Below are positions 750 to 6,821 of a stretch of DNA of 9,881 nt, one piece after another. A program made the translations under genes and the position numbers. Position 1 is the first letter of the stretch. Each line of letters begins with the position of its first letter. Origin of the DNA: a virus (lineage: Duplodnaviria; Heunggongvirae; Uroviricota; Caudoviricetes). The notes under the pieces are model-generated. The model saw only the letters and a list, made by a program, of their open reading frames with translations. It did not search any database and was not told the origin of the DNA. Location: IMG/VR virus record IMGVR_UViG_2675903425_000022; one strand, written 5' to 3'.

Positions 750-1496
750 TTACTTCACAACCCTCATATTGCTGACATTTGGACGCCAGCTATCCCAGTT
801 AAACGTCACCCATCGACCACCGTTCATGGTCATGCGGTCCATAATCCTCTCACCAAGAAGTGTACTCATTGCGGCATGATTCAGGTTTGTTAACATCCCG
901 ACACTGCACAGTGATGCTGTCCGGCGATCAATTATCTGGTGTAATACCACCTGCTCGTTTTTCGTCTCCCGCTGAACGCCTATTTCATCCAGGACCAGCA
1001 AATCAACACTGCAAAGCTCCTGTAAAAATTTTTCCCCGGATTTGCCGTTGTCGTAGCTGTCATGCAACACGCTCATGACATCAGACACGGTGACGATAAT
1101 CACGCTGCGCCCCTTCGCCATCAGCCGGTTACCCATCGCCGCTGCAAGGTGATTTTTCCCGGTGCCGGTTTTACCGCTGAACACAAAATTCGTGCACCCG
1201 GTCATCAGTTCGTCAGCTATGGATTTGGCCTGGCTCAGCGCGTATTTTTGCCCGTCGTTCTGCACCTGATAATTCGCAAACGAGCATTTGCTGTGCAGAG
1301 GCTGGATGCCCGAACGATTCAGGATTTTTTCCACCCGCAACTGGTGATTCTGGCGGTTAATCTCCTCGCTGCGTTTTCGTCCTTCAGCAAGTTGCCATTC
1401 CCGCCACTCCTCCACCGTCCGGTACGGTGGAACCGACGCCTGTGGTGCAAGTCTGCGAATACGTTCAAGAACCCCGGCTGCCGCAATGTTTTTCAT
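750..1496 (-). CDS. DnaC-like replicative helicase loader (phage replication protein, AAA+)
   Basis: 248-aa ORF. Contains GKTGTGKNHLAAA (E. coli DnaC has GKPGTGKNHLAAA, recalled) and a Walker B-like DLLVLDEIG, with a C-terminal LGERIMDRM...WVTFNWDSWR tail resembling DnaC. ATG at 1496 with GGGGGTGA upstream; it starts 6 nt after the stop of the upstream initiator gene. Confidence 0.9.
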   Translation of the reverse strand: MKNIAAAGVLERIRRLAPQASVPPYRTVEEWREWQLAEGRKRSEEINRQNHQLRVEKILNRSGIQPLHSKCSFANYQVQNDGQKYALSQAKSIADELMTGCTNFVFSGKTGTGKNHLAAAMGNRLMAKGRSVIIVTVSDVMSVLHDSYDNGKSGEKFLQELCSVDLLVLDEIGVQRETKNEQVVLHQIIDRRTASLCSVGMLTNLNHAAMSTLLGERIMDRMTMNGGRWVTFNWDSWRPNVSNMRVVK

Positions 1497-1502
1497 GCCA
1501 CA

Positions 1503-2594
1503 TCACCCCCTGAATCCCGGCGGAATTTCGGTATCCGGTTCAGAAATATGATTCACACAACGCTGGTTGTTCGTGCCGCTTACCGGGAGCAACCAGGGGT
1601 TTTCAAAATTCCGGTCCGGCCCAAAAAACGTCGTCGCTCGCTGAACAAATTCCGTTCCCGCTTTCCCGGTCGCCGCCAGGTATCTCGCGTAACGCCTCAC
1701 ACCATCCAGCATGGTCTCTGGTGGCACCCCCTCGCGCAATCTGGCCTTCCAGGCACTGAAAGCGGATTTCTTCGGGTTTGCCCCAGCACGCAACGGGTAT
1801 TCCCGCCAGACCTGTTCGAACACATCCGGATAATCCACTCGTCCCACAGACTGCCCGGTGCTTTCCGGGACTACCCGATCGGCTTCCCGCTGAATGGCGG
1901 AATCGGCTTCAGGCTGCTGCAGTTGGTGTGATTGCTCCGACCCTGCGGTCATCACCTGCTGCACAGCGCCCGAATCGGCTTCCGGTGTCGTGCCTGCTGG
2001 CTGACCAGGATTGACGGTCTGAACATCCCCTGCCTGGTTCGTGGTGTTTTTTTTGCCATGAACCATAGTGTTTTTGTCCTGTTCCTGTTCTTTCTCCTGC
2101 TCCTGTTCCTGTTCTTGGCTTCGAAGCCCCTTAAAAGCCCCTTCGAAGCCCCTTACCGAATTTCGGCTATTATTCCGCCTCACATCCAGATGGAAATCCG
2201 TTTTATATCTGTCGTAAAACACTGACAGAAAAGCGTTTTCAGGTAATGATGCATACTCATTCCTGACACCTGCACAACGGTTATCGCCAGGCTTCAACGT
2301 TTCCCCAACCTGCCAGGCTGCCATTTCATGGACCCAGACCATCTCTGCATCATGGTCATAGCTACAAAAACCAGCTTCAACAGCCCTTTTAAGCCCCTTT
2401 GAAGCCCCTTCCAGACCAAGCCCGGTTTCATGAGCAAGGTATAAAACTGGCAGGTAATACAAACCCAGCATATTTGCGTGAGGGGATGTCATCAGGTAAA
2501 AAGCAACAACTTGCGCTTCTGCACCCGCCTTTCTAAGTTCTCTCCCCGTTTCTCCCAGCCAGAATCGCGGAGAAACTTTTGCGTAATCACGCAT
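1503..2594 (-). CDS. Replication initiator / replisome organizer (O-like); alternative upstream start at 2705
   Basis: Long ORF immediately upstream of, and tightly coupled to, the DnaC-like gene, which is the classic O-P arrangement. I place the start at M38 (MRDYAKVSPRFWLGETG..., top CAT 2592-2594) because GAGGT lies 5 nt upstream; the longest ORF start (2705) has no Shine-Dalgarno. The gene contains two clusters of iteron-like repeats and an (EQ)n linker (see repeat features). Confidence 0.65.
   Translation of the reverse strand: MRDYAKVSPRFWLGETGRELRKAGAEAQVVAFYLMTSPHANMLGLYYLPVLYLAHETGLGLEGASKGLKRAVEAGFCSYDHDAEMVWVHEMAAWQVGETLKPGDNRCAGVRNEYASLPENAFLSVFYDRYKTDFHLDVRRNNSRNSVRGFEGAFKGLRSQEQEQEQEKEQEQDKNTMVHGKKNTTNQAGDVQTVNPGQPAGTTPEADSGAVQQVMTAGSEQSHQLQQPEADSAIQREADRVVPESTGQSVGRVDYPDVFEQVWREYPLRAGANPKKSAFSAWKARLREGVPPETMLDGVRRYARYLAATGKAGTEFVQRATTFFGPDRNFENPWLLPVSGTNNQRCVNHISEPDTEIPPGFRG
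2078..2113. repeat. Imperfect tandem hexanucleotide repeat (CCTGTT)n, about 6 units, in frame within the initiator gene
   Basis: Read directly: cctgtt cctgtt ctttct cctgct cctgtt cctgtt. On the minus strand it encodes QEQEQEQEKEQEQ in the initiator. Confidence 0.8.
2123..2154. repeat. Iteron-like cluster 1: three tandem copies of (G/A)AAGCCCCTT at 11-bp spacing
   Basis: Read directly: GAAGCCCCTT (2123-2132), AAAGCCCCTT (2134-2143), GAAGCCCCTT (2145-2154). Flanked on the low-coordinate side by the hexamer repeat and a T-rich stretch (2040-2076). Confidence 0.7.
2382..2410. repeat. Iteron-like cluster 2: three tandem copies of the AAGCCCC(T)TT unit at about 10-bp spacing
   Basis: Read directly: AGCCCTTTT, AAGCCCCTTT, GAAGCCCCTT. 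Same core as cluster 1, about 230 bp away, inside the same gene. Confidence 0.7.
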
Positions 2595-2672: not shown

Positions 2673-3128
2673 ATGTATTTTTTGAAAAGCCTTTATCAGG
2701 CTCATGTATTAAATGTTGCAGCAACAAACCGCTGGTGTAACAGCCCCGAAATGCTCCCGGATTACAGAGCCTGGCTGCGCGCCGAAACATACCTTCGTCT
2801 CGACATATTGATTAGCGAACTTCAAAAAGAGACTGCATCCATTCATAACCTTCAGGGTATCGACGCTGTTCGCATTCTGGTATCGCGCCATAGTGCTCTC
2901 TCAATAATTGAAGTGCGTCATCTCTCTTTTTCTGAACTGATTTTCTTGCTTCAACCAGCTCTGGAATCAGCGAATATCCCGCCGGAAGTGATCCAATACC
3001 CACCTCATGTTGACGAGCAGTTACAAGATGTGCCATACAACCAGCGTGCTGGATTGACTCCCTGCTCAGAGGCTGAATGGGATCACTCTCTGCTGAAGAA
3101 ATACCAAGATTTGTATAATCCTCAATAA
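2673..3128 (+). CDS. Hypothetical protein (151 aa) antisense to the minus-strand operon; candidate independently expressed moron
   Basis: ATG at 2673 is preceded by a perfect AGGAGG (2660-2665, 7-nt spacer) and a perfect TATAAT (2629-2634) about 38 nt upstream. No family recognised from the translation (MYFLKSLYQAHVLNVAATNRW...). It overlaps the minus-strand ORF 2812..3321; only one of the two may be real. Confidence 0.3.
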   Translation: MYFLKSLYQAHVLNVAATNRWCNSPEMLPDYRAWLRAETYLRLDILISELQKETASIHNLQGIDAVRILVSRHSALSIIEVRHLSFSELIFLLQPALESANIPPEVIQYPPHVDEQLQDVPYNQRAGLTPCSEAEWDHSLLKKYQDLYNPQ

Positions 3129-3334: not shown

Positions 3335-3825
3335 TTAATGCACAGCCAGAGTGTTTCCTGCCGGGCCACCACGATTCATCTGATCGAACAGAACGATCGC
3401 TGATGCAACGAAATCATCAATATCTTTCACCAGCCGTTCCTTCGTCTCTACCAACTCCCGAAAATAAGCGGAACTGTGGCTGCGCATTCGGGCCACCAGC
3501 GGAGGCGGCATCGCTTTTTCGATCGCTGGTAACAACGCCTGAATTTTTTTAACCGCATCAGGAGTGTCTTTCTCCACCCAGCGGAAAATTTTCTGAGTAT
3601 TGCGAGCCATGGCTTCCGGATGGCTGTCGTCATACAGTTCCGGGAACGTCATTCCCAGCTCGAAATACGCTTNNNNNNNNNNNNNNNNNNNNNNNNNNNN
3701 NNNNNNNNNNNNNNNNNNNNNNGCTCGAAATACGCTTTGGTAATTTTCGCAGCCGGTACTTTTTCGCCGTCCGGATGCGCCCAGGCATTCATCGCCATGC
3801 GGATGTGTTCATGCTTGATTTTCAT
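3335..3825 (-). CDS. ydaT: YdaT-like (CII-analogous) regulatory protein; ORF interrupted by a 50-N gap
   Basis: ATG at 3825 (top CAT 3823-3825) with GGAG 7 nt upstream. N-terminus is MKIKHEHIRMAMNAWAHPDGEKVPAAKITKAYFE up to the gap, and the translation resumes after it as LGMTFPELYDDSHPEAM...GNTLAVH. Removing the gap and one copy of the duplicated 15-mer gives a continuous 426-nt ORF (141 aa), the size recalled for YdaT. Position after the Cro-like gene fits. Confidence 0.7.
3673..3722. other. Run of 50 N (scaffold gap), flanked by identical 15-mers
   Basis: gctcgaaatacgctt occurs at 3658-3672 and again at 3723-3737, immediately on either side of the N run. Confidence 0.95.
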
Positions 3826-6768: not shown

Positions 6769-6821
6769 ATTCTGGTGACATTTGGCGGTATCAGTTTTAC
6801 TCCGTAACTGCTCTGCCGCCC
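6769..6821 (+). ncRNA. dicF: DicF small RNA homolog (53 nt)
   Basis: ATTCTGGTGACATTTGGCGGTATCAGTTTTACTCCGTAACTGCTCTGCCGCCC differs at 3 of 53 positions from the K-12 DicF sequence as I recall it (TTTCTGGTGACGTTTGGCGGTATCAGTTTTACTCCGTGACTGCTCTGCCGCCC). It is followed by TTTTTT and located just upstream of dicB, as in Qin. Confidence 0.8.

Follow-up and report, generated by a model that had tools for sequence, protein, structure and literature searches.

Putative iterons of a lambda-style origin inside the replication initiator gene of an Escherichia coli O157:H7 prophage

Short tandem repeats inside a replication initiator gene raise two questions: are they preserved as DNA or only as the peptide which they encode, and do they mark an origin of replication? 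We address both for a stretch of 9,881 nucleotides (hereafter the window) which matches a prophage of E. coli O157:H7 at 99.8-99.9% identity, the initiator gene itself being 100% identical. This gene harbors two clusters of a 9-bp motif (Table 1). They are probably the iterons of an origin which lies, lambda-style, within the initiator gene itself. The candidate iteron and origin reading is well backed, by comparison only, because the repeats are conserved as DNA, travel together with the N-terminal domain of the initiator and, for the distal cluster, occupy the junction between this domain and the following linker.

Table 1. Coordinates of the repeat clusters, the initiator and its partner gene (window positions unless residues are given)
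Feature	Position	Strand	Remarks
Proximal repeat cluster	2380-2410	-	two exact AAGGGGCTT units (2402-2410, 2391-2399) and a degenerate unit
Distal repeat cluster	2117-2154	-	three exact AAGGGGCTT units (2146-2154, 2135-2143, 2124-2132) and the half-unit AAGCC
Replication initiator gene, 363 aa	1503-2594	-	ATG at 2594 used by all homologues and RefSeq
N-terminal predicted winged-helix domain of initiator	aa 1 to ~135		
Peptide from distal repeats	aa 148-159		within initiator
Gln/Glu linker of initiator	aa 160-174		
Initiator beyond linker			disordered stretch to ~aa 250, then helical C-domain
Initiator C-terminal tail			PDTEIPPGFRG
Hexamer repeat (CAR GAR)n	2069-2116	-	period 6 (Tandem Repeats Finder); encodes QEQEQEQEKEQEQ, the QEQEQE linker
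T8 run (A8 on gene strand)	2047-2054	.	past the linker, in a 40-bp stretch of mildly reduced stability (2044-2084)
DnaC-type helicase loader gene	750-1496	-	directly downstream of initiator; NF009043 (E = 1.6e-153), PF01695 (E = 3.9e-19), PHROG 50

On the plus strand of the window, the distal cluster comprises three exact AAGCCCCTT units at 11-bp spacing, found by reading of the sequence, pattern search and Tandem Repeats Finder, and the proximal cluster two further exact units with the same spacing. By chance, about 0.08 exact copies of a given 9-mer would be expected in 9.9 kb (2 x 9881 / 4^9), against the five observed. Elsewhere in the window, a pattern search tolerating one mismatch returned a single match (683-691). 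The gene lies on the minus strand and thus the coding-strand form of the motif is AAGGGGCTT. An in-phase half-unit (2117-2121; GGCTT on the plus strand, AAGCC on the gene strand) completes the distal cluster, which encodes the end of the N-domain directly ahead of the Gln/Glu linker. The proximal cluster includes a degenerate in-phase third unit, CAGCCCTTT, at about 2380-2389. A distance of 256 bp separates the two clusters, and no further repeat cluster was seen in the window by pattern search or Tandem Repeats Finder.

The original prediction had described three tandem units with 11-bp spacing at 2123-2154, and the exact copies agree with it. It had also described a second cluster of three units about 10 bp apart at 2382-2410; the cluster exists, but it is made of two exact units at 11 bp and a third which is degenerate, and this degeneracy accounts for the shorter spacing. 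Both clusters lie within the coding sequence of the initiator, as had been proposed, with the hexamer repeat and a T-rich stretch on one side, beyond the distal cluster. The peptides attributed to them, GFEGAFKGLRS and GLEGASKGLKRA, are correct translations.

The units have some symmetry of their own. The motif is near-palindromic (AAG-GGG-CTT), and a flip of its orientation amounts to an exchange of GGG for CCC. At 2117-2150, the CG spacers turn every unit junction into a CTTCGAAG palindrome, and positions 2117-2128 form a perfect 12-bp palindrome, GGCTTCGAAGCC. An intramolecular G-quadruplex was considered and dropped: no cluster has more than three G4 runs on the same strand, and conservation is just as strong in the inverted, C-rich versions.

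The open reading frame called mechanically spans 1503-2705. The start at 2594, which is preferred by all homologues and RefSeq, has a GAGG motif upstream. The 37-codon extension (2595-2705) overlaps the start of an opposite-strand gene of the ECs1072 family (2673-3128, +). The encoded protein matches PHROG 1701, labelled 'DnaD-like helicase loader' (E = 1.3e-148), but no Pfam family at E <= 0.1, neither PF04492 nor PF09681 among them, and a PDB sequence search returned only chance-level matches (E about 0.7). Homology to lambda O or to SPP1-type initiators was discarded on these grounds. At least 1192 relatives are present in protein databases at E <= 1e-5, under NCBI names such as 'DNA-binding protein', 'replication protein' and 'hypothetical protein'. 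Among the database relatives listed, precomputed Pfam domains were absent with the exception of one PF09524 match (P0118). Database entries identical to this E. coli protein (P0001-P0007) are in many cases marked 'partial' and stop at contig ends; draft assemblies seem to break often within this mosaic, repeat-bearing gene.

In an AlphaFold model computed from a 20-sequence alignment, the N-domain reaches pLDDT values mostly between 80 and 95. Its topology (H25-36, E45-47, H50-57, H60-73, E77-80, E85-88) is that of a predicted winged helix, in which helix 3 would by its position be the usual recognition helix. The proximal cluster encodes E62-L68 (EGASKGL), inside this predicted helix 3. At the other end of the protein, the tail (window 1503-1540; ...SEPDTEIPPGFRG) shows a weak similarity to the C-terminal 24 residues of the E. 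coli primosomal protein DnaT (NF002770, E = 0.002). The PDxxIPxGFRG pattern is kept in homologues whose C-domains otherwise differ. This tail may be a docking peptide for the loader or the helicase.

How widespread is this arrangement? A profile search with the N-domain retrieved 80 viral contigs and 79 species-level loci, the latter from Gamma- and Betaproteobacteria and a few metagenome bins labelled as other phyla. In the 77 usable species-level loci (GC 36-69%), the motif was scored with at most one mismatch. The proximal motif (near gene nt 185/196) was present in 72 of the 77 and the distal motif (near gene nt 429-463) in 75. Motif density was 10.9/kb in the gene segment and 0.35/kb in the flanks of about 5 kb, which corresponds to a 32-fold enrichment. 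Seven Acinetobacter loci (L015, L018, L026, L030, L031, L049 and L004) carry, in addition, two to four non-coding units in the 11-nt phase about 45 nt upstream of the initiator start, and one of these units contains the ribosome-binding site (AAGGAGCTT). The upstream units suggest autoregulation or an extended origin. L073 contains the initiator N-domain region twice in tandem. The additional copy, ~650-940 nt upstream of the matched gene, has both a proximal and a distal cluster; the upstream motif clusters of L073 belong to it and were not retained as extra non-coding units.

In four loci (L076, L086, L087 and L062), both the proximal motif and the EGASKGL peptide are lost, yet repeats in 11-nt phase persist ahead of the linker. 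Three of them (L076, L086, L087; Undibacterium and betaproteobacterial MAGs) are the most divergent members. Since divergent lineages preserve the distal repeats and not the proximal ones, we take the distal cluster as the core element and the proximal cluster as auxiliary. In L076 and L086 the phased repeat before the linker is a different one of the xACCTT type (GACCTTCCCGG TACCTTGCGCA AACCTTCGAAG in L086), which may reflect a changed iteron specificity.

A codon alignment of 83 genes was used to ask whether the DNA of the repeats is conserved more strictly than their peptide requires. The codons of the proximal motif are nearly fixed: GAA 100%, GGG 97%, GCT 80%, AAG 100%, GGG 84% and CTT 88%. 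The codon which covers the 2-nt spacer is free (1.83 bits), and other conserved Gly, Ala and Leu codons vary by 1.6-2.3 bits and prefer GGC, GCC and CTG. The six motif codons have a normalised codon entropy of 0.20, compared with 0.85 for 54 conserved codons outside the motif (Mann-Whitney p = 4e-5). The distal cluster provides a different type of evidence. Its units are all inverted (minus) in 53 loci, all co-oriented (plus) in 9 and mixed in 13, always in the 11-nt phase. Inverted units read AAGCCCCTT on the coding strand and encode EAPSKPLRS, while co-oriented units encode EGASKGL. The codons of the inverted version are equally fixed (GCC 100%, CCT 92%, CCC 89%, CGA 93%, AGC 100%). The inverted form occurs in PhiR5_2 and 75/02 Stx; their N-domains share 74% amino acid identity with that of the window. 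The number of units varies as well, with three distal units in the window versus two in Klebsiella and Citrobacter relatives.

Because inversion changes the peptide while the DNA motif persists, the distal peptide is a by-product of the DNA. The coupling of binding sites and protein motif which had been proposed on the basis of the window thus fails at the distal cluster, where most homologues are inverted and encode EAPSKPL. The conservation which had been put forward for verification gave, in contrast, a clearly positive answer: judged by codon entropy, orientation flips and non-coding copies, the repeats are kept as DNA beyond coding needs.

The initiator gene is a mosaic. Its C-terminal half (window 1505-2074) shares 92% DNA identity with phage Tritos and others; counterparts of the N-terminal half (2074-2600) occur in Klebsiella, E. 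coli, Acinetobacter and Ralstonia phages with 64-77% identity. The break falls near 2074, in the QEQEQE linker, and adjoins the distal cluster. Phage Tritos, which combines the shared C-half with a different N-domain, lacks the motif. Fraca and LMessi share the N-domain, have a different C-domain and a primase/helicase partner, and contain the motif; the Acinetobacter and Ralstonia phages share the N-domain, have other partners, and contain it too. Every phage with this N-domain carries motif pairs at the same two gene positions, whatever its C-domain or partner. Across the phages compared, the motif therefore follows the predicted winged-helix N-domain and nothing else, C-domain and partner (helicase or loader) being variable, and the N-domain and the repeat sites are co-inherited as one module. 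Among the 67 loci with full flanks, the initiator is the sole gene common to all. The next commonest neighbor, a repressor-like HTH gene, occurs in 28 of the 67, and the partner gene downstream encodes a DnaB-type helicase in 22 loci and a loader of the DnaC/IstB type in 18. A gene for another co-inherited binder was sought and rejected, as none is common to all 67.

The linker itself varies in length. It comprises 13, 15 or 21 residues among near-identical E. coli relatives (loci L088-L119) and 6 to 34 residues in the whole family. Its synonymous sites are free, yet both options are purines. This repeat may be a homology patch for module exchange, and it coincides with the recombination junction between N- and C-domain.

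The prophage also has immunity genes of the usual kind, RelBE, DicB/DicF and a RecE-like exonuclease. Upstream of dicB, at window 6770-6821 (+), is a full-length DicF antisense sRNA (Rfam RF00039, 76.9 bits), which is expected in such prophages. A run of 50 N at 3673-3722 is flanked by identical 15-bp sequences (3658-3672 and 3723-3737) and looks like an assembly gap. It makes a YdaT-like gene look split (ORFs 3335-3652 and 3649-3825), which is intact (141 aa) in strain PV15-279; the apparent 65-bp insertion in this gene is actually the run of 50 N. An adjacent gene of the ECs1072 family is the sole hint from which an identity of the prophage with Sakai Sp4 is suggested. The only amplification of Sp4 that was observed was due to regional replication from Sp5 (PMC2669165). 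Should the window be Sp4, this prophage copy may rarely fire, which counts against an active origin here.

We propose the following sequence of events. The clusters would be double-stranded DNA sites for the winged-helix N-domain of the initiator itself. Several initiator molecules would bind the 11-bp-phased units on roughly one face of the helix, at the distal cluster in the first place, with the proximal cluster as an auxiliary site. The resulting nucleoprotein complex would destabilise DNA nearby, the candidates being the purine-rich linker tract (2040-2116) and an AT-richer segment (2193-2233). Finally, the C-domain of the initiator would recruit host DnaB along with the downstream-encoded loader of the DnaC type, and replication would fire.

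A distinct AT-rich unwinding element beside the repeats was not found, either in 72 genes or in the duplex stability of the window, and this speaks against the origin reading. Over the 72 genes, the linker has a purine fraction of 0.80 on the coding strand with an AT excess of only +7-10% over the gene average, and a comparable mild excess precedes the distal cluster by 60-100 nt. In the window, duplex stability around the clusters is lowest in three 40-bp segments (2193-2233, 2436-2476 and 2044-2084), with z values of only 1.2-1.7; the stretch with the T8 run (2044-2084) is unremarkable at z = 1.17. The hexamer tract would be a candidate flank for strand opening. A second point against an origin is the small unit size, a 9-bp core at an 11-bp period, compared with lambda and plasmid iterons.

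The position of the proximal cluster invites a further, more doubtful idea to which we give a low chance: the iterons would be written in the helix-3 codons of the binding domain itself, so that the specificity determinant and its target are the same 20 bp. If this were true, determinant and target would be inseparable by recombination and neither could change without the other. Such a constraint might explain why one 9-mer is nearly unchanged although the initiators share no more than 45-60% identity and their hosts extend from Acinetobacter (GC about 36-40%) to Burkholderiales (GC about 65-69%). Lambdoid iterons, in contrast, normally diversify with the specificity of their initiator. L062, with an altered helix 3 (EAAEQGL) and a canonical distal motif, and the few lineages without a proximal cluster weigh against the origin reading as well; owing to them, the residues encoded by the proximal cluster may not be what reads the motif.

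Could the same sites serve another purpose? They might be initiator sites for control (autorepression, a transcriptional roadblock or a handcuffing-like pairing), with the origin elsewhere in the prophage. We consider this unlikely, albeit the strongest of the alternatives. The Acinetobacter units overlap the ribosome-binding site and the 5′ region in the manner of an operator, the two separated clusters would permit looping, and no clear unwinding element adjoins them. On the other hand, the most persistent cluster (75/77 loci) lies deep inside the ORF at a domain junction, the classic position of a lambdoid origin (PMC7466680). No other repeat cluster was seen in the window. Iterons commonly serve both control and initiation, and a control function therefore complements the origin reading more than it excludes it.

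It is still less probable that the motif is read by another host or phage protein, acts through DNA or RNA structure, or is a recombination signal at the module boundary. The clusters are mutually reverse complementary in most lineages (16-20 of 20 nt) and the linker is a mosaic junction, as such explanations would have it. Pairing is contradicted by the window and other enterobacterial members, in which both clusters have the same orientation, by the mixed orientation in 13 loci, and by the spacers, which lack compensatory change where the clusters are inverted (complementary fraction 0.206 versus 0.189 expected). Long-range pairing of the clusters as RNA or single strands was rejected on account of the co-orientation in the window and the chance-level spacer complementarity. 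Rfam gave no match in the initiator gene, which disposes of a known RNA family. Against another protein, no neighboring gene except the initiator is common to all loci, and hosts ranging from Acinetobacter to Burkholderiales argue against a single host factor.

Finally, the notion that the repeats merely reflect a needed repeated peptide (EGASKGL-like) with no function as DNA retains next to no probability and was abandoned: proximal EGASKGL is indeed well conserved and lies in a predicted helix, but the motif codons are nearly fixed over GC 36-69% where codons for Gly, Ala and Leu outside the motif drift, every inversion of the units goes along with another distal peptide (EAPSKPL or mixed), the same units recur in non-coding DNA, and the free variation of neighboring codons excludes a very recent transfer of a single sequence.

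If the reading as origin iterons is confirmed, it would assign an origin and initiator sites to a very large and barely annotated family of replication modules which has no Pfam model. The family extends over prophages of Enterobacterales, Acinetobacter, Stenotrophomonas, Burkholderiales and relatives, including E. coli O157:H7 prophages and some Stx phages. A motif so simple and near-invariant could flag origins automatically in these prophages. Orientation-tolerant, 11-bp-phased units would also offer a compact system for the study of winged-helix initiator assembly on DNA, and the initiator gene is an unusually clean case of overlapping protein-coding and DNA-binding constraints.

Elements of this kind are well known, and phage origins within initiator genes were catalogued by Weigel and Seitz in 2006, as cited in PMC7466680 and PMC9144972. 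For the present initiator family we found no description: searches of the literature for the motif, for iterons in the module, for replication regions of Stx phages ('Eru') and for phage replication modules returned no account of the motif or of an origin, and no report of binding or replication for any member.

Which of the known systems comes closest? Plasmid replicons with a winged-helix Rep protein (RepA, RepE, pi; the staphylococcal RepA N-domain, 4pta) are one comparison. Plasmid iterons usually measure 17-22 bp and are intergenic, whereas the units of the window have a 9-bp core, are phased by 11 bp, vary in orientation and lie inside coding DNA, so that the plasmid type does not apply. 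Phage P22 (gene 18) and Bacillus phage SPP1 (gene 38, oriL) have origins embedded in initiator genes. These origins involve another protein family (the window initiator has no PF09681 hit) and another repeat sequence. Nearer to hand, the Stx phages 933W and P27 have six-iteron lambdoid origins with true lambda O homologues, and both binding and origin function were shown experimentally; there, too, the number of iterons in the gene varies with matching insertions in the protein (PMC7466680). In contrast to these two phages, the putative iterons and origin of the present family are predicted from sequence comparison.

The closest parallel is lambda. The name O-like, given to the gene at the outset, is apt insofar as the repeats (five exact units and one degenerate) lie in lambda fashion inside an initiator ORF, with a DnaC-type loader gene (750-1496) immediately downstream. 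As to the protein, it designates an analogue and not a detectable homologue of lambda O, since neither PF04492 nor any other Pfam family is matched. The four iterons of the lambda ori are about 19 bp long, whereas the window has a 9-bp core at an 11-bp period which is tolerated in either orientation. A second cluster, 256 bp away inside the winged-helix coding region, also departs from the lambda plan, no marked AT-rich tract like that of lambda is seen in the window, and the partner is of the DnaC type instead of lambda P. The shared traits are those of layout: in gene O the repeated sites likewise sit within the initiator ORF at the junction of the N-terminal DNA-binding part with the rest, extra units add residues to the protein, the gene of the helicase-recruiting partner follows directly downstream, and N-domain and sites make up one exchangeable module (PMC7466680). 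The present family further differs from lambda in that a single 9-mer has stayed unusually constant in hosts which are only very distantly related.
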